Shown one piece after another: positions 15,101 to 60,247 of a stretch of 64,000 nt of DNA (the first letter of the stretch is position 1; each line of letters starts with the position of its first letter). Source of the stretch: an uncultured Spirochaetaceae bacterium (GTDB lineage: Bacteria > Spirochaetota > Spirochaetia > Treponematales > Treponemataceae); assembly GCA_902789325.1 (NCBI GenBank), contig CADANN010000001.1, positions 38,024 through 102,023 of the forward strand, read 5' to 3'. The notes under the pieces were generated by a model, which saw nothing but the letters and a program-made list of their open reading frames with translations, was not told where the DNA came from and did no database searches. The translations under genes and the position numbers were made by a program.

Positions 15101-15156
15101 AAAACAAAATCCTTATAACTTTTTCCAATATTTGTTGTGTCTGTAAAATTAAACAT
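12103..15156 (-). CDS. M16C (PreP/insulinase-like) zinc metallopeptidase
   Basis: 1017 aa with the inverted zinc motif HIMEHSVLCGS (HxxEH). Confidence 0.9.
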   Translation of the reverse strand: MFNFTDTTNIGKSYKDFVLLSIDELKDYKAKGVYLRHKITGLEVYHIIKDDKENLFAYAFRTLDKTSRGVAHIMEHSVLCGSEKYPLKEPFITLASTSLNTFLNAFTYPDKTVYPGASVVRADYFNMMDVYGDAVFFPKLDRETFTQEGHRVEMDENGKLSIQGVVYNEMKGNYSSFQPIAFSDLIGAMFPNSYPAFDSGGDPLHIPELTYQDFLDFHQKFYSPDNCLLFLYGDIPTDQQLDFIDERFISRLVKKYDCREGGVISNIDTTSKTPLIKDEVRELQKLEFLKESTEIKTYAPETGSTGSLVTLNWYAGKADMEKYFLSEALCGNDSSPIARALKDSKLGDDVQFQSFGQFKEEFYTAGLWGVQKGDEEKVFDLVEKTLNDIYENGVSQEDIDSAVMGIDFALREVNRYWGPFSIQLMEKALKGWCNGDSCASQLSPITSFEKVKKALREDPDYTKKLIKKYFLDPDAVKVRFISEPSDKYFKEREEAEAALIEKLGKDIDREQLKKELDELHTYQQHIETAEETACIPTTKISELDRKIDIPHTSLEFVKGADNSEIPLFVSKEDTNGIFYIDVLFPFDNLAPEYLQHVPFLADVITNLGWNGKGWDRCTAESSCIMGDIWGRTLCGSIPDAPECLAEAAKYKDYNFCGRNWIGLICKALSEKAEEALNMLAEIITTMDFDDHKHLETLIGELKAEKKNSLISNGRDYAQKRARSMWSPTLALNEIMWGVSQLHTVSNYKKHDAKNLLKTFAYMYSECIKAGGIIHITADEESLKKIRPLLQNFAQKTGITKLLPIHNYTMDELKPYIWQADDAASAELQFIKVSGQTGYAATITPSSEYLTKESAAENIFTAWISSHTLWDKIRTTGGAYGANCWVDSIEKSVVMTTYRDPTPFKSIKVYLDSLKELCSTPIPKEEVEKTIVASYGNAIVPACPKDRGARSFEGMLYANPQDFKQKRVDNILEVTEDDVEKAADRLYEASVKKCSKAVFSNKSDKSEEFAGKIIKLPL

Positions 15157-16345
15157 AAACGTCGTCGTTCCTGTCTTGTATAATTAAGTGTCCCTCTTCG
15201 TATGCGCGTCGGAGTTTGCTGAAGAACTCGGACGTTATGCGCTCGCAGTCTGAGCGGCGCATTGGTTTTAAGATGTCTTCCTGTGCGCGAACTTCAGCGC
15301 GGCGGCCAGCAGAAATGTTGCTTAAGATTTTTTCGCGGAAATCATCAGGCTTAGCTGCAATAAGGAAGGCAATATCTACCTCTGTCATTTCGCGAAGTTT
15401 TTCCTGAACAAAACGATCGTCGGATTTTACAACATCGTCCATTGTAAAAAGACGACTGCGCAGGTCCTGTCCCAAATCTGGATCATCTTCGCTAAGGTAG
15501 GTAAGAATATCATTTTCGGCCCCGACATCCATCTTCTTAAGAATCTGGGCAAGTGCGTTGCGGCCATCAATATTTTCAGCTTTTTCAACAGTTTGATTAA
15601 GAGATTTTTCGTGCATAGCCTGATCTACACGGCGAAGTACATCCGGGCTGACAGGCTCCATTTTTGCAAGACGCATTACAACTTCCTTTTTTTCTTCGGG
15701 AGTCATAAGGTTAATGATTTTTGCAGATTTTTTTGGATCAAGATGAGAAAGTACCATGCACTGAACACCAGGATTTTCATCTTTGATTAAAAGATAGATT
15801 CGTTCATTGTCTGCGTCGCGAAGATAGTTGAAAGGAACCTTACCTTCAAGCGGCATAGCTCTTTTCAAAAGCTCGTCCGCACGTTTTTTACCGTAAGCCT
15901 TTTCGAGCATTTCGCGGGCAGTTTCAACACCGCCCTCCTCGCGCGCCTTATTCAAGAGGCCGTTAAATTCTTCAAGAATTACAGCCGCTTCTTCCTTGCT
16001 TACAGTACGGATAGAAGCAATTTCCGGAATTATTTTTTCAATCTGAGTTTCTGCAAGATGCGGAAGAATCTTAGCCGCTTCATCTTCGCCGATTAAAAGA
16101 AGAAACTTTGCAACACGTCGGTAAACAGAATCTTTTCCATCGGGAGTTGTCTGTTCAACAGGAACTTTAAGAAGTCCGCCTGTTTTCAAAAACGAAACAG
16201 ACTCTTCGAGTTCCTGAGATGAAGAAGGCTTATTTTGTGTAAGATCTTTTGCCTTTATATCTTCAGCGTTGTCTGCGGTGCTGTCATTTTTATTATTTGT
16301 TTTTCCAACACCGTAGGCTTTAGCACGGAAATCATTTTTATTCAT
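15149..16345 (-). CDS. fliG: FliG-family flagellar switch paralogue with ~60-aa N-terminal extension (FliG1-like)
   Basis: 398 aa with FliG middle and C-terminal domains. It overlaps the M16 start by 8 nt and lies outside any flagellar operon. Confidence 0.8.
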   Translation of the reverse strand: MNKNDFRAKAYGVGKTNNKNDSTADNAEDIKAKDLTQNKPSSSQELEESVSFLKTGGLLKVPVEQTTPDGKDSVYRRVAKFLLLIGEDEAAKILPHLAETQIEKIIPEIASIRTVSKEEAAVILEEFNGLLNKAREEGGVETAREMLEKAYGKKRADELLKRAMPLEGKVPFNYLRDADNERIYLLIKDENPGVQCMVLSHLDPKKSAKIINLMTPEEKKEVVMRLAKMEPVSPDVLRRVDQAMHEKSLNQTVEKAENIDGRNALAQILKKMDVGAENDILTYLSEDDPDLGQDLRSRLFTMDDVVKSDDRFVQEKLREMTEVDIAFLIAAKPDDFREKILSNISAGRRAEVRAQEDILKPMRRSDCERITSEFFSKLRRAYEEGHLIIQDRNDDVYV

Positions 16346-54779: not shown

Positions 54780-56516
54780 ATGGACTACACAAAACATCCG
54801 CTTAAGATTTTCTTCTCGTATTACAAACCTCATGTGGGCCTCTTCATTGCCGATATGATCTGCGCATTTTTTATGGCCGCTATAGATGTTGCATTTCCAA
54901 TGTTCACCCGTTATGCATTAAACACACTGATTCCCAATCATCAGCTTCGAACATTTTTAATTCTTGTAGTAATTCTTTTTGCAGGATTTTGTCTTCATAA
55001 AGCCTGCAACTGGTTTGTAGCCTACTGGGGACACGTTTTCGGAAACCGAGTTGAGCAGGATATGAGGCGAGATGTTTTTGATCACCTTGAAAAGTTACCC
55101 TTCAGTTTTTACGACACAAACCGAACCGGTAAAATCATGTCGCGTGCAACCACAGATCTTTTTGAAATCACAGAACTTGCACACCATGGTCCAGAAGATT
55201 TTTCAATCGCAATGCTGAATCTCATTGGTTCCTTTGTACTTCTTCTTACAATCAGATGGGAACTTGCGATAATTGTTTTTATCATGCTGCCTCTGATTTT
55301 CTTCATAGTATATACTTCGCGAAAAAATCTTACTCAGGCTTCTACAAAAGTAAAAGAAACAACTGCCGAAGTAAACGCAGGTCTTGAATCCAGCATTTCG
55401 GGAATCCGCGTAACAAAAGGCTTTTGCAACGAAGATTTTGAACGAGAACGCTTCGCCGTTTACAACAAACAGTACAGTGCCGCAAAACAGGGCCGCTTCC
55501 GCTATATGGCAAGTTTTTTCTCAAACATCGAATTCTGTAATAATCTTCTTTCACTTCTTACTATTGCAGTTGGTGGATATTTTATCATGCAGGGAAAAAT
55601 GACACTCCCAGATTTAGTTGCCGCTAACTTATTTGTTGCAAGTTTTGTAGGACCAATTAAACGTTTAAACGGATTTGTAGAACAGTTTGCAACCGGTATG
55701 GCAGGCTTCAACAGATTTATTGAACTTATGAACACAGCGACTGAACCAGCCGATGCTCCGAATGCAGTAGAAATTCTTTCTGCCCGTGGAAACATCAGCT
55801 TTAAGAATGTTGATTTTTCTTATACTCCAGACTTCCCTATTTTGCAGAATGTAAATCTCGAAATTCATTCCGGAGAAAAATTTGCGCTCGTTGGTGCAAG
55901 TGGAGGTGGAAAAACAACAATCTGTAATCTTATTCCACGCTTTTATGAAATTACCGGTGGCTCAATCAGCCTCGATGGAATTGATATTCATCAGATAAAA
56001 AAACAATCCCTCCGTACTCAGATTGGCATTGTACAGCAGGATGTTTTCCTTTTTGCCGGAACTATCCGCGAAAATATTGCATACGGAAAACCGAACGCTA
56101 CACAGGAAGAAATTGAGCTTGCAGCTCGTCGTGCCGAAATCCACGAAGACATCATGAAAATGCCTAACGGCTACGACTCCGTGGTGGGCGAGCGCGGTAT
56201 TAAGCTCAGTGGCGGACAAAAACAGCGCGTCTCAATCGCCCGCTGCTTCCTCAAAAATCCCCCAATCTTAATACTCGACGAAGCGACATCCGCCTTAGAC
56301 ACCGCGACCGAGATCAAGATACAGCACGCATTCGATGAACTTTCCCGAGGTCGCACTACTCTTGTAATTGCACACCGTCTTTCCACCATCAAAAATGCCG
56401 ACAAAATTGCCGTGGTAAATGACCACGGCATAGTAGAACTCGGCACACACGATGAGCTTATGGCAAAACACGGTGAATACTACAAGCTACAGAGCGCTCA
56501 GGTTACCGTGCAGTAA
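54780..56516 (+). CDS. ABC exporter, fused permease/ATPase (MsbA/multidrug-like)
   Basis: Walker A GASGGGKTT, signature LSGGQKQR and Walker B ILILDEATS. Confidence 0.92.
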   Translation: MDYTKHPLKIFFSYYKPHVGLFIADMICAFFMAAIDVAFPMFTRYALNTLIPNHQLRTFLILVVILFAGFCLHKACNWFVAYWGHVFGNRVEQDMRRDVFDHLEKLPFSFYDTNRTGKIMSRATTDLFEITELAHHGPEDFSIAMLNLIGSFVLLLTIRWELAIIVFIMLPLIFFIVYTSRKNLTQASTKVKETTAEVNAGLESSISGIRVTKGFCNEDFERERFAVYNKQYSAAKQGRFRYMASFFSNIEFCNNLLSLLTIAVGGYFIMQGKMTLPDLVAANLFVASFVGPIKRLNGFVEQFATGMAGFNRFIELMNTATEPADAPNAVEILSARGNISFKNVDFSYTPDFPILQNVNLEIHSGEKFALVGASGGGKTTICNLIPRFYEITGGSISLDGIDIHQIKKQSLRTQIGIVQQDVFLFAGTIRENIAYGKPNATQEEIELAARRAEIHEDIMKMPNGYDSVVGERGIKLSGGQKQRVSIARCFLKNPPILILDEATSALDTATEIKIQHAFDELSRGRTTLVIAHRLSTIKNADKIAVVNDHGIVELGTHDELMAKHGEYYKLQSAQVTVQ

Positions 56517-56527
56517 GCAGTAAAACT

Positions 56528-56572
56528 GTCATTCCGAACTTGTTTCGGAATCTAAATCAAGTTCAGCATGAC
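56528..56572. repeat. double-hairpin repeat element, copy C (second hairpin half-deleted)
   Basis: GTC-ATTCCGAA-CTTGT-TTCGGAAT-CTAAATC-AAGTTCAGCATGAC. It overlaps the last 3 codons and the stop of the minus-strand gene. Confidence 0.75.
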
Positions 56573-57876
56573 TCAACCACACGGATTGCAAAAGTGTCAT
56601 CGGCAATGCAAACTTCGCCGCGTGCAACAATTTTGCCTGAGCGGATAATCTGTGCAAACTCTCCGGCCCTCTGTTTCAAAATAACATAAGAGCCCTGATG
56701 CAGGCCTGCAACTTCTTCTTTTGAAAGGTAAGCGCTTCCAAGCTGAATCGAAATATAATCTTTTTCATCGTAGATGATTTCATTCAACTGAGGATTTTCA
56801 GCAATTCTCATTCCAAAAAGTTCATCAATTGCAACAGTTTTACCAGTGTGAATTACACGGTTCTCATAAACAAGATTTAGTCCTTCATTTTCCTTTTTAT
56901 CCAGAATTAAAATCAAGCCCGGTTCAAGAGAAACATTTTCCGGACGGAATCTTCCAAGTTCAATAAAAACATTGTCCGGCTGCTGATGACTTTTTATATT
57001 TGAAAGATTCTGAAATCTTATTTTTCCACCAACAGTTCCTGCATTTCCGCCGTCACCAAAAAAGCCGCCCATAACCATTTCTTCAAGAAGAGTGTCACTA
57101 AACTGAAGATTTATCCAGCCTTCCTGACCGGCAACATTTCCCTTAAGAGCAAGCAGCAGCATCATGCAATTGTCTTCCTGCCGAGTCGTATTGGAATTTC
57201 CTGCAGCCACAGCTTTTCCCAGCTCAAACTTTTCGTCAGAAACCTTCCCGTCTGTGCGCCGACAGATTTCTTCCTTAAGCATTCCTGTTACAGTTTTTAC
57301 AAAATAATTCTTAAAAACATCAATATCAAATTCAGTAATGGCCTCGTATTTCGTGCAATCCTGTTTGAGCAGTGCCTTTGCAATCAGAGCATCTGCTTCA
57401 ATAGTAAAACCTGCATTCGAATAATCAAAATCATAGAAAAAACATTTCTGCGGAATCGAATGTAAAAACTCGGAATTAATCATCTGATCCACAAGTGACA
57501 CAGAAAAATCACAGCGCTCATTCATCATGGCAGTAAATTCATGATTTATAAGACGGCAGATATCCTCGCCCAGAATCCAAAGCTCCCGCTGCATATAACG
57601 CGGATAACGGTCTGGCTGGCGGAAGTTATACTCCTTAATTTTCTTTCCGCTCACATCCTGACTCACAGGCAATTCGCCGTTCATAATCGACTCAACTTCA
57701 ACTCCAAATACTTCGGCAAGTTTAGGAAGTACTGTCACATCCGGGCAACCTTCACCACGCTCCCACTTTGAAACAGCTTTGTCGGTTACATTACATTGTT
57801 CTGCAAGTTCCTTTTGAGTAAGTCCCTTTCGATTTCGTAATTCATAAATCAAAAATCCAGTTTTTTCTGCATTCAT
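56563..57876 (-). CDS. XRE-type HTH fused to FliM-like middle domain and FliN/SpoA-like C-terminal domain
   Basis: - HTH: LRNRKGLTQKELAEQCNVTDKAVSKWERGE.
- FliM-like segment: IKEYNFRQPDRYPRYMQRELWILGEDICRLINHEFTAMM...
- FliN-like end: GSYVILKQRAGEFAQIIRSGKIVARGEVCIADDTFAIRVVE.
The start follows an AAGGAG RBS. Confidence 0.75.
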   Translation of the reverse strand: MNAEKTGFLIYELRNRKGLTQKELAEQCNVTDKAVSKWERGEGCPDVTVLPKLAEVFGVEVESIMNGELPVSQDVSGKKIKEYNFRQPDRYPRYMQRELWILGEDICRLINHEFTAMMNERCDFSVSLVDQMINSEFLHSIPQKCFFYDFDYSNAGFTIEADALIAKALLKQDCTKYEAITEFDIDVFKNYFVKTVTGMLKEEICRRTDGKVSDEKFELGKAVAAGNSNTTRQEDNCMMLLLALKGNVAGQEGWINLQFSDTLLEEMVMGGFFGDGGNAGTVGGKIRFQNLSNIKSHQQPDNVFIELGRFRPENVSLEPGLILILDKKENEGLNLVYENRVIHTGKTVAIDELFGMRIAENPQLNEIIYDEKDYISIQLGSAYLSKEEVAGLHQGSYVILKQRAGEFAQIIRSGKIVARGEVCIADDTFAIRVVESC

Positions 57877-57962
57877 AATAATTCTCCTTAGCAGTTTCCC
57901 GCTTACATTCAAAATCGTAACACGGAAGCTGCAGTCTGTAACCCGACGTGTAGTTTAACAGA

Positions 57963-57986
57963 GTAGAATTCTAAGTAGAGTTCTAC
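57963..57986. promoter_or_regulatory. tandem palindromic half-sites upstream of the HTH-FliM/N gene (operator candidate)
   Basis: GTAGAATTCTA-A-GTAGAGTTCTAC. TAGAATTCTA is a perfect 10-bp palindrome. The site lies about 90-110 bp upstream of the start codon. Confidence 0.35.
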
Positions 57987-58172
57987 TGAAAAACAACTGA
58001 TTTTACAGTCAATTCTTCAAATTTCTACACACAACTCTACTTAAGCATAACATGAATACTGTAACTTTCAATAAAAAAATCAGTTATTTAGATGATTTTA
58101 AGTGACATTATTATTTTTTTTATATTCTACAAAGGTCTAAATAAGATTTAATAACATAAGATTCAAAAACTA

Positions 58173-58456: not shown

Positions 58457-60247
58457 ATGTGTGGTTTTGTAGGATGCTTTGATTTGAACTCAGGTAGCGC
58501 GCCTATTGCAGAAGGCTTGAAAGAAGAACTTCGTGCGCAGGTTCTGGAGATGTCTAAGAAAATTCGTCACCGTGGTCCAGACTGGAGCGGTGTTTATACC
58601 GGTAATAATGCTATTTTAAGCCATGAACGTCTTTCAATCGTAGACCCACTTTCAGGAAAACAGCCTTTGGTCAGCGATGATGAAAAAATCATTCTTGCCG
58701 CAAACGGTGAAATCTACAATCACAAGGAAATCCGAGCAAAGTTTGATGGTTCATATAAGTTCAGAACTGGAAGTGACTGCGAAGTTATTATTCCTCTTTA
58801 TAAAAAATACCGCAAATCTGGCGATTTCACAAAGATGATTGAAGAGCTTTCGGGTATCTTCGCATTCGCACTTTATGACAGCGAACACGACACATATCTG
58901 ATTGCCCGCGACGAAATCGGTGTTATTCCACTATATCAGGGCTGGGACAAAGCAGGCCGCTATTATGTTGCAAGCGAACTCAAAGCTCTCGAAGGCGACT
59001 GCCAGACAATTGAAGAATTCCCTAATGGAAGTTATTTATACAGCGGCCGTCATGCTGAACTTGTTTCAGCATCAACTGATGAGACCCCGAAACCAATCCG
59101 CTGGTATCACCGCAACTGGGAATCATATGAAAGCGTAAAATCAGCCCCAAAAGCAACCGACGAAAAAGGCGAAGTAATCAACCCAAGCGTAATCGAAAAA
59201 GTACGTAACGGACTCGAAACTGCAGTAAAAGCCCAGTTGATGTCAGACGTTCCTTACGGCGTACTTCTTTCCGGCGGTCTCGACTCATCAATCATCGCAG
59301 CAATCACACAAAAATACAGCAAAAAACGTATTGAAACAGACAGCAAGGAAGCAGCCTGGTGGCCACAGCTCCACTCATTCGCAGTTGGACTTGAAGGTTC
59401 TCCAGACCTTATCGCTGCTCAAAAGGCCGCAGACTATATCGGAACCGTTCACCATGAAGTACACTTTACAATTCAGGAAGCACTCGATGCTCTCCCTGAT
59501 GTAATTTACCACATCGAAACTTACGACATCACAACAGTTCGTGCCTCTACCCCTATGTATCTGCTTGCGCGTGTAATCAAATCTATGGGAATCAAGATGG
59601 TTCTTTCGGGCGAAGGAAGTGACGAGCTCTTTGGTGGTTACCTTTACTTCCACAAGGCTCCAAATGCACAGGAGTTCCATGAAGAACTTGTACGTAAAAT
59701 GAGTAAACTTCATCTTTACGACTGTCTCCGTGCAAACAAATCTCTTATGGCATGGGGTGTTGAAGGCCGCGTTCCATTCCTTGATAAAGACTTTATCGAC
59801 ATCGCAATGGGCCTCAACCCAAGTGATAAAATGAACATCAAATTACCAGATGGTAAACAGAGAATGGAAAAATGGATTCTCCGTAAAGCCTTTGAAGATC
59901 TTCTTCCAGAAAGCATTGCATGGCGCCAGAAGGAACAGTTCTCAGATGGTGTAGGCTATAACTGGATTGATACCCTCAAAAAGATGACAGAAGAAAAGGT
60001 AAGCGACGCAGAATTTGCACGCCGCGAAAACCGCTTCCCTGTAAATCCTCCAAAAACAAAAGAGGAATATTACTACCGCGAAATCTACAGCCGCCTCTTC
60101 CCAAGCGACAGTGCAGCACGTTGTGTTCCACACGAAGCCGGAGTTGCATGTTCAACAGCAAAAGCCCTCGAATGGGATGCAGCATGGAAGACTATGGATG
60201 AACCGAGCGGACGCGCAATTGCAGGAGTTCACGATAATGCCTACTAA
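58457..60247 (+). CDS. asnB: asparagine synthase (glutamine-hydrolysing)
   Basis: N-terminal MCGFVG (Ntn Cys) and PP-loop SDVPYGVLLSGGLDSS. 596 aa. Confidence 0.96.
   Translation: MCGFVGCFDLNSGSAPIAEGLKEELRAQVLEMSKKIRHRGPDWSGVYTGNNAILSHERLSIVDPLSGKQPLVSDDEKIILAANGEIYNHKEIRAKFDGSYKFRTGSDCEVIIPLYKKYRKSGDFTKMIEELSGIFAFALYDSEHDTYLIARDEIGVIPLYQGWDKAGRYYVASELKALEGDCQTIEEFPNGSYLYSGRHAELVSASTDETPKPIRWYHRNWESYESVKSAPKATDEKGEVINPSVIEKVRNGLETAVKAQLMSDVPYGVLLSGGLDSSIIAAITQKYSKKRIETDSKEAAWWPQLHSFAVGLEGSPDLIAAQKAADYIGTVHHEVHFTIQEALDALPDVIYHIETYDITTVRASTPMYLLARVIKSMGIKMVLSGEGSDELFGGYLYFHKAPNAQEFHEELVRKMSKLHLYDCLRANKSLMAWGVEGRVPFLDKDFIDIAMGLNPSDKMNIKLPDGKQRMEKWILRKAFEDLLPESIAWRQKEQFSDGVGYNWIDTLKKMTEEKVSDAEFARRENRFPVNPPKTKEEYYYREIYSRLFPSDSAARCVPHEAGVACSTAKALEWDAAWKTMDEPSGRAIAGVHDNAY
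59049..59093. repeat. double-hairpin repeat element inside asnB (copy B, 3'-truncated)
   Basis: GTC-ATGCTGAA-CTTGT-TTCAGCAT-CAACTGATGAG-ACCCCGAA-AC. It is translated in frame as RHAELVSASTDETPK. Confidence 0.8.

Follow-up and report, generated by a model that had tools for sequence, protein, structure and literature searches.

What is the function of a gene that joins a DNA-binding head to parts of the flagellar motor switch and stands alone among housekeeping genes? The question is raised by a 64,000-nucleotide stretch (hereafter, the window) of contig CADANN010000001.1 from an uncultured Spirochaetaceae bacterium. The contig belongs to a Treponema assembly (GCA_902789325.1) of 3.15 Mb, which comprises 101 contigs and is 94.6% complete. 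On the minus strand, window positions 56563-57876 hold an open reading frame (ORF) of 437 amino acids, P0001, whose TGA stop codon occupies 56563-56565. The reading that we favor, with a probability of roughly 45%, is that this gene encodes an autoregulated one-component transcription factor whose input module is a diverged, single-chain derivative of FliM and FliN.

The N-terminus was described in an initial annotation, made from the sequence alone, as a helix-turn-helix (HTH) domain of the XRE/Cro type, and this description is borne out. The HTH_3 model (PF01381) matches residues 10-62 with 60.2 bits, compared with a Pfam cut-off of 23, and the predicted structure resembles ClgR and C.BclI in Foldseek searches. 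The same annotation proposed that a FliM middle domain follows. The Pfam hidden Markov model (HMM) of FliM (PF02154) matches only residues 83-145, and its 23.3 bits fall below the cut-off of 27; the NCBIfam model TIGR01397 (fliM_switch) likewise does not reach its threshold (30.2 versus 219.6 bits). Because the Pfam match is weak, the FliM assignment was probed further by a profile search, by structure prediction and by comparison of folds. A profile made only from nine HTH-bearing homologues was used to search the sequences of the PDB, and it matched the Helicobacter pylori FliM middle domain (4gc8/4fq0, E=4e-15, residues 77-268), as well as FliN (1yab/1o6a, 3e-13, residues 370-431) and the P22 C2 repressor (4e-7). 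Foldseek comparison of an AlphaFold2 (AF2) model with the PDB recovered whole FliM chains from cryo-electron microscopy structures of the Salmonella C-ring (9n49_M, E 3e-10) and isolated FliM middle domains with template-modelling (TM) scores of 0.74-0.81, the highest being that of 4gc8_B. The protein also aligns colinearly, at 21% identity, with the FliM of its own genome from the IKxYDFxRPD motif onward. The proposed FliM domain therefore stands as a fold, despite failing the Pfam cut-off in the HMM check.

The AF2 model has a mean predicted local distance difference test (pLDDT) score of 79.8. It consists of a five-helix HTH domain (residues 1-66), a disordered segment (71-88), an alpha/beta domain (93-269), a glycine-rich disordered segment (275-298) and two beta-rich domains (303-360 and 375-436). 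The last two are SpoA domains, and two stretches of the protein match FliMN_C (PF01052) with 50.1 bits, relative to a cut-off of 23.8. The first resembles the SpoA domain of FliM, and the second is an additional domain of the FliN type. Thus, the earlier statement that the protein ends in a FliN-type SpoA domain is correct about the last domain, but the protein carries two SpoA domains, not one. The FliN model TIGR02480 scores 70.2 bits, which is under its equivalog threshold of 84.05, so a FliN-type domain is present although the protein is not FliN itself. The best structural counterpart of the tandem domains is an engineered FliM(SpoA)::FliN fusion (4yxb_A, E 9e-10, TM 0.68). In the model, the C-terminus is a covalent pair of FliM_C-like and FliN-like domains that is predicted to pack in the manner of 4yxb.

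Two other identities were considered and set aside. A regular-expression search of the protein for the phosphatase motif of CheC, CheX and FliY, [DS]xxxExxNx(22)P, found no match. Because this active-site motif is absent and the Foldseek matches to CheC and FliY are weaker than those to FliM, a CheC-type phosphatase was dropped. Membership in the SctQ proteins of injectisomes was rejected because TIGR02551 (SpaO_YscQ) yields 15 bits, compared with a cut-off of 100.8.

The fusion is found in many independent sequences. Near-identical full-length proteins of 437-441 amino acids (120 are listed) are encoded on more than 100 separate metagenomic contigs, so the fusion is not an assembly error. Full-length homologues are present in about 13 of the 151 Treponemataceae species genomes, in three GTDB genera, and within a sample of 301 Spirochaetota genomes representing 125 genera, only the genus of the window itself scored. 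When 1.84 billion cluster representatives were searched exhaustively with HMMER, the full architecture turned up in about 11 clusters at 50% identity. Sources named in the records are treponemes from the rumen or hindgut of cattle, buffalo, water deer, horse and Hadza people, and the cultured isolate Treponema bryantii XBD1002 also carries the fusion. It is a small family, limited to Treponemataceae of the gut and rumen. Its reading frames are intact across 34% to 99% identity, which implies purifying selection.

The HTH-bearing proteins form two clades. Members of clade A, which includes the window gene, open with MNAEK, and those of clade B open with MDAQ, comprise about 460 amino acids and are about 35% identical to the window protein. 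Both clades are represented in T. bryantii and in a metagenome-assembled genome of the window's own species, whereas the present assembly has clade A only. In clade B, the linker between the HTH domain and the FliM-like body holds a peptide of the EIDAL type (SLTASEIEQLLHAISTG in T. bryantii, compared with VLSQDEIDQLLTAISSG in canonical FliM). BLASTP aligns a clade-B protein with canonical FliM colinearly from canonical residue 2, at 42% identity (E=1e-23); other members of the clade have a more degenerate peptide. Because clade B retains this peptide behind the HTH domain, the DNA-binding head appears to have been joined to the front of a FliM-like protein that was still complete. Clade A would have lost the peptide later, its linker being shortened to 14 residues.

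In a maximum-likelihood tree, all HTH forms fall into one clade with support of 100/99, apart from canonical FliM. This clade also takes in three proteins that lack the HTH domain (P0151, P0197 and P0146), which share with the HTH forms the tandem SpoA domains and an LLKQ replacement within the FliM-like domain. P0151 and P0197 have EIDAL peptides and no FliG fusion. P0146 combines two EIDAL peptides, a FliM-like body and two SpoA domains with FliG_M and FliG_C domains recognized by Pfam. A similar arrangement was seen in L055 (Treponema sp. RUI378, JAILRG010000137.1), where visual reading and a tblastn search with a FliG_C query indicate that a frame of 817 codons starts with an alpha/beta-hydrolase-like region and continues through a FliM-like body and two SpoA domains to FliG_M/FliG_C. 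L055 has no LLKQ-type motif and was not among the tree sequences. As judged from these frames, orphan one-chain fusions of FliM and FliG exist among the relatives of the window protein (P0146 and L055). The two-SpoA FliM paralogues L018, L058 and P0178 fall outside the clade of HTH forms. They belong to a group of solitary FliM paralogues of about 380-395 amino acids (L018/L032:7225-8361 of G033, L058 and P0178) that branch with canonical FliM and keep the EIDAL peptide, two SpoA domains and a Pfam FliM match of 73 bits.

The DNA-binding head has relatives of its own. A head about 50% identical over residues 1-85 occurs in proteins of about 194 amino acids in other Treponemataceae (L019, L021, L023 and L024). 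Because it is also fused to other sensor-like domains in this family of bacteria, the HTH domain appears to be a modular head of one-component regulators. In the four shorter proteins, it is followed by a desulforedoxin-like CxxC...CC motif and a superoxide-reductase-like domain, which suggests a one-component regulator that senses redox state or iron.

Which functions of FliM might such a protein have retained? Canonical FliM starts with a peptide (VLSQDEIDQLL) of the type to which phosphorylated CheY (CheY-P) docks (PMC6946799). The peptide is present in the canonical FliM and FliY of this genome and in the clade-B paralogues, and is missing from the window protein, whose linker at this place consists of 14 residues (GELPVSQDVSGK). 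It had been suggested that the HTH domain replaces the CheY-binding peptide. The peptide is indeed absent, but this is no simple replacement, because clade-B proteins combine all three of HTH domain, EIDAL peptide and FliM-like body. A second loss concerns the GGXG loop, which contacts the middle domain of FliG. Opposite LFGGRGAT of the genome's own FliM, the protein has a deletion of eight residues, and a pattern search of the entire protein found no GG.G. The place of the loop is taken, in all family members, by KALLKQD with two invariant lysines (K167 and K171). Because the FliG-docking loop is deleted in every family member, docking to the C-ring in the canonical way is less probable. In contrast, the IKxYxFxxPD and FFG...LSNIK motifs stay close to canonical FliM even though both are disordered in the AF2 model. 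They correspond to the L1 and L2 segments of FliM; in the Salmonella C-ring, L1 sits at the interface of FliM and FliN, and the L2 helix is domain-swapped with the adjacent FliM subunit (PMC11087270). On the evidence of the alignments, the parts by which FliM and FliN subunits join each other are kept, and the parts that join FliM to CheY and FliG are lost.

The DNA upstream of the gene may show what the HTH domain binds. Tandem palindromes at 57963-57986, pointed out in the initial annotation, are real and exact (GTAGAACTCTAC followed by TTAGAATTCTAC), and are kept alongside the gene in other species and in both paralogue clades. Six half-sites lie within 170 bp, whereas 0.18 would be expected from their frequency in the genome (Poisson P=3.7e-8). 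They are part of a module that is conserved upstream of 16 homologues that were aligned or read, which have unrelated gene neighborhoods. It comprises two to four TCTAC half-sites spaced by 10-12 bp (about 20 bp at some loci), a TAAAC or CCTAC box, the sequence GTCGGGT(T/G)AC(A) and, 17 nucleotides further on, a TGn-extended -10 element. In an alignment of 13 of these sequences from both clades, the second TCTAC box never varies, the first TCTAC box and GTCGGGT hardly vary, and the DNA around the boxes is not conserved. Three of the most distant HTH forms (34-40% identity, from metagenomic contigs) share the pattern, one of them with GTAGAGTGACA in place of GTCGGGTGACA. We read the promoter as a sigma-70 type with a weak -35 and an extended -10 element. 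A generic promoter scan does not list it (score 8/12), so the assignment relies on conservation. Sigma-28, sigma-54 and extracytoplasmic-function (ECF) promoter types were rejected because the conserved block, judged by eye, lacks the spacing that they require. Conservation also bears on the start codon. A longer frame could start at a TTG codon at 57912, but this position falls inside the predicted -10 and transcription start region, and all orthologues open with MNAEK or MNAQK, so translation is taken to start at 57876.

The array and its palindromes plausibly represent an operator. The composite site and the 11-mer GTCGGGTTACA were found nowhere else in the assembly, flagellar promoters included, and with a site unique to its own promoter, autoregulation is the natural reading. 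Because the boxes cover the -35 element, the regulation is probably repression. One subclade departs from this arrangement: at 44% identity (L033:7083-7538, L030:5940-6401, L034:6075-6536 and L049), the TCTAC/GTCGGG module is not directly upstream of the gene. In this subclade, a conserved ORF of 151-153 codons without a Pfam hit is located 28-54 nucleotides upstream on the same strand. It is likely an operon partner, and is absent from the genome of the window.

Table 1. Positions in the window of the HTH-FliM/FliN-like gene, the domains that it encodes and its predicted upstream elements
Feature	Position	Strand	Basis or remark
Coding sequence, HTH-FliM/FliN-like protein, 437 amino acids	56563..57876	-	Orthologues colinear from MNAEK to the C-terminus
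XRE/Cro-type HTH domain, residues 1-66	57679..57876	-	HTH_3 E=2e-16; P22 C2 repressor PDB profile match; Foldseek ClgR and C.BclI, TM 0.64-0.74
Short linker GELPVSQDVSGK and invariant IKxYxFxxPD (= FliM L1); no EIDAL	57601..57678	-	Alignments; low pLDDT at residues 71-88
FliM middle-domain (CheC-like) fold, residues 93-269; GGXG loop replaced by KALLKQD	57070..57600	-	Alignment, profile, Foldseek
Glycine-rich disordered linker with conserved FFG...LSNIK, aligned to FliM L2	56971..57069	-	Alignment, AF2
First SpoA domain, which aligns with the C-terminal SpoA domain of canonical FliM	56797..56970	-	Second FliMN_C match, alignment, AF2, Foldseek
SpoA domain 2, FliN-like, not in canonical FliM	56566..56754	-	FliMN_C residues 375-435; TIGR02480 70.2 bits; 1yab/1o6a E=3e-13
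Ribosome-binding site AAGGAG	57884..57889	-	7 nucleotides ahead of the ATG at 57876
Putative extended -10, TGT TACGAT (TACGAT at 57914-57919)	57914..57922	-	Position kept in 13 aligned promoters
Putative -35 GTTACA, overlapping the GTCGGG box	57937..57942	-	Conservation
GTCGGG box fused to the putative -35 (GTCGGGTTACA)	57937..57947	-	Most conserved upstream block; 11-mer unique in the genome
Proximal repeat array GTAGAA CTCTAC TTAGAA TTCTAC ... TTAAACTAC, including the palindromes at 57963-57986	57950..57986	-	Upstream alignment; composite unique in the genome
Distal half-site pair GTAGAG N6 GTAGAA	58023..58040	-	Sequence reading

A mechanism for such an autoregulated factor can be proposed from these parts. 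As SpoA domains are obligate pairs, the two domains of the window protein would form an intramolecular pair like that of 4yxb or SctQ, and these pairs might then associate into dimers or tetramers. Further association of this kind has precedent in FliN tetramers and in units of one FliM_C with three FliN (FliM_C:3FliN; PMC11087270). The oligomer would bring two or more HTH heads onto the repeat array across the -35 element, most likely repressing transcription of the gene. The body derived from FliM and FliN would serve as the input, in that binding of a partner, or co-assembly with it, could alter the number of heads that reach the DNA. Candidate partners for clade A are switch proteins with SpoA domains (FliY and FliM_C), FliH-type peptides, a CheY, or a protein that binds the KALLKQD surface. 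In the ancestor of the family and in clade B, a CheY-type or FlhG-type partner could bind the EIDAL peptide, and clade A would have lost this tether. Because the sister clade keeps a peptide suited to docking CheY or FlhG, the ancestral input was probably of the CheY or FlhG type.

Several observations weigh against the proposal of a regulator with a switch-derived input. The losses of the GGXG loop and the EIDAL peptide remove the two best-understood contacts of FliM. Neighborhoods of the homologues contain neither flagellar or chemotaxis genes nor a conserved partner gene; an all-against-all BLAST of the ORFs at 10 homologous loci and the window found no conserved neighbor, only sporadic ones. 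The conserved part of the upstream module consists mostly of direct TCTAC repeats, and not of clean palindromes. The assembly was scanned for the 12-bp palindrome (at most two mismatches), the CTCTAC-N-TTCTAC composite, TCTAC-N5-GTAGA and the GTCGGGT box, patterns that catch close copies of the motif only, and these scans returned the gene's own promoter or single sites at chance level, with no second copy of the operator.

The same observations lend themselves to an alternative that we regard as possible though rather unlikely, namely that the module has been exapted in full. The body would then be a scaffold for oligomerization, or would bind an unrelated ligand or partner through KALLKQD, and the regulon would have no connection with motility. 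A family-invariant new motif in place of the GGXG loop would be expected of such a module, as would the loss of the EIDAL peptide in clade A, the solitary position among housekeeping genes with no flagellar neighbor, and the failure of the assembly scans to find an operator at flagellar genes. The patchy distribution points the same way: all treponemes are flagellated, yet only about 13 of the 151 Treponemataceae genomes, and one of the 125 Spirochaetota genera sampled, have the gene. Complete separation from the motor is harder to reconcile with a near-canonical EIDAL peptide in the sister clade, or with L1 and L2 motifs and a FliN-like strand (GEVCIADDTFAIRV) that remain close to canonical sequences. 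Moreover, P0146, of the same clade, is fused to FliG_M and FliG_C, and an ORF consisting of FliG_C only is found two genes downstream of one homologue.

Perhaps, in the narrowest version of the sequestration proposed by the initial annotation, the protein is instead mainly an accessory subunit of the C-ring, and its HTH domain represses its own gene as long as the protein is unassembled, in the way that PutA and free ribosomal proteins act. The only recognizable operator in the genome is its own, and the self-assembly features of FliM and FliN (L1, L2 and the 4yxb-like SpoA pair) are all kept, as this explanation would require. We nonetheless consider it improbable. Without the GGXG loop, the protein could not dock to FliG in the known way, most treponemes build their motors without it, its gene is not co-localized with motor genes, and elsewhere its family of HTH heads belongs to one-component regulators. 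The missing FliG-docking loop also weakens the idea, put forward in the initial annotation, that the protein may be a regulator that is sequestered at the C-ring or senses its state of assembly.

A bolder extension, which we view as a long shot, is that the HTH-FliM/FliN family connects chemotaxis and the motor directly to gene expression. In clade B, transcription would change when CheY-P or FlhG binds a switch paralogue that sits on the DNA. The FliM-like bodies would stand side by side as they do in the C-ring, with one HTH domain for each TCTAC repeat. A spacing of 12 bp between repeats corresponds to about 4.1 nm, and the distance between FliM subunits in the C-ring is similar. The clade-A protein of the window would be a derived form that reports free as opposed to assembled switch subunits.

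The last explanation, a chimeric assembly or a decaying duplicate of FliM, might draw on the subthreshold Pfam FliM score, but is effectively refuted: the same full-length product, rather than the separate ORF joined by a sequencing error that had initially been considered, recurs on over 100 contigs of independent origin, full-length homologues are encoded in 13 or more further Treponemataceae genomes, the T. bryantii isolate has the gene too, homologues at 34-70% identity contain no stops, the predicted structure is confident and the promoter is conserved.

The surroundings of the gene do not point to motility. As initially noted, the gene is outside the flagellar cluster: the canonical fliL-fliM-fliY-fliP genes of this genome are on another contig (C8). 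On one side of the gene is a convergent ATP-binding cassette (ABC) exporter (54780-56516), and on the other a divergent asnB operon that starts at 58457; neither is related to motility. Synteny with asnB is shared with G082 only. On the plus strand, a promoter-like site (58087-58114) that may serve asnB is followed closely by a further GTAGAA/TTCTAC half-site (58125-58130). This half-site could be due to chance or to cross-regulation of the asnB operon. Between the convergent genes, a hairpin repeat (ATTCCGAA..TTCGGAAT, 56528-56572) overlaps the stop codon. The C-termini of the orthologues stop at the same place (VVESC here, compared with VMEVCE, VLESK and VIEVK), so the repeat alters no more than the final two residues.

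Other genes that may relate to the motor or to signaling were encountered. At 15149-16345 (minus strand), 41 kb from the HTH-FliM/FliN gene, the window contains a FliG paralogue of 398 amino acids (FliG_C 82.9 bits) with a long N-terminal extension of low complexity. It lies between a peptidase-like gene and ABC exporters and resembles spirochete FliG1; the canonical fliG is elsewhere. In G000, canonical fliG occurs twice, each time at the end of a contig (C4:251974-253145, fliF-fliG, and C12:95008-95313, fliG-fliH-fliI), with a frame break on C4, which looks like a split in the assembly and not a duplication. In three genomes other than that of the window, the HTH-FliM/FliN gene adjoins a gene for a multi-pass membrane diguanylate cyclase with a GGDEF domain (RYGGDEF; L026:5783-6955, L029:8843-10018 and L031:9281-10438). 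Two genes downstream of the distant homologue P0127, and on the same strand, is a gene for a protein of 177 amino acids that consists of a coiled coil and FliG_C (L120:2167-2700).

FliM and FliN rank with the most conserved and most thoroughly studied proteins of the flagellar motor; they are known for their roles in its structure and switching, and not as modules of transcription factors. All domains of the window protein are known ones, and its DNA-binding end probably behaves as in other autoregulated XRE proteins. The combination with FliM and FliN, above all in clade-B proteins with a CheY-docking peptide, would be surprising to flagellar specialists; full-text literature searches found no description of an HTH-FliM protein or of a regulator with SpoA domains, and public cluster records contain no name for the protein. 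A natural protein in which a complete FliM-FliN body bears a DNA-binding head would be a testable case of motor parts re-used for gene regulation. Because sister forms keep the CheY-docking peptide, the family might show how a single-domain CheY controls transcription through a FliM-like adaptor. Ordinary experiments are feasible, since T. bryantii, the host of a family member, is a cultivable rumen spirochete. Even if the module is fully exapted, it would be a new sensor or oligomerization domain for XRE regulators, and also a natural single-chain FliM_C-FliN pair of use in structural work on the C-ring.

Canonical FliM (on contig C8 of this genome, in Salmonella structures 8umd/9n49 and in H. 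pylori structures 4gc8/4fq0) shares with the window protein a colinear arrangement of L1, CheC-like middle domain (TM 0.8), L2 and first SpoA domain. It differs in having the EIDAL peptide where the window protein has an XRE HTH domain, in its GGXG loop and in the absence of an additional FliN-like SpoA domain. The window gene also lies outside the fliL-fliM-fliY operon, and its product, at 21% identity, belongs to a separate clade (100/99). Closer relatives are P0146, P0151 and P0197, which are in the same FliM-like clade and have LLKQ in place of GGXG and tandem SpoA domains. Like L055, these are encoded by solitary genes, but all four carry CheY-docking peptides, FliG domains or both, and no DNA-binding domain.

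With regard to its C-terminus, the window protein resembles the FliM(SpoA)::FliN fusions 4yxb/4yxc and the natural tandem-SpoA proteins SctQ/SpaO, in that two SpoA domains in one chain are predicted to form a pseudo-dimer. However, 4yxb is an artificial construct and the window protein is natural, and the score of 15 bits with TIGR02551 separates it from SctQ, its sequence being far nearer to spirochete FliM than to any injectisome protein. With XRE regulators such as SinR, ClgR, DdrO and P22 C2, it has in common an HTH_3 head, repeated putative half-sites over its own promoter and likely autoregulation. These regulators differ in their C-terminal domains, as none with a flagellar switch module was found in the literature searched.

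Several systems couple flagellar assembly to transcription, including FlgM/sigma-28, FliX-FlbD of Caulobacter and FlgSR of Campylobacter, which senses FliF/FliG. They rely on secreted anti-sigma factors or two-component proteins. The window protein resembles them only in the concept of the initial annotation, according to which transcription is set by the state of the basal body or C-ring. In contrast to all of them, it is a switch paralogue with a DNA-binding head of its own, and the only promoter to which its putative operator could be linked is that of its own gene, and not a flagellar one.

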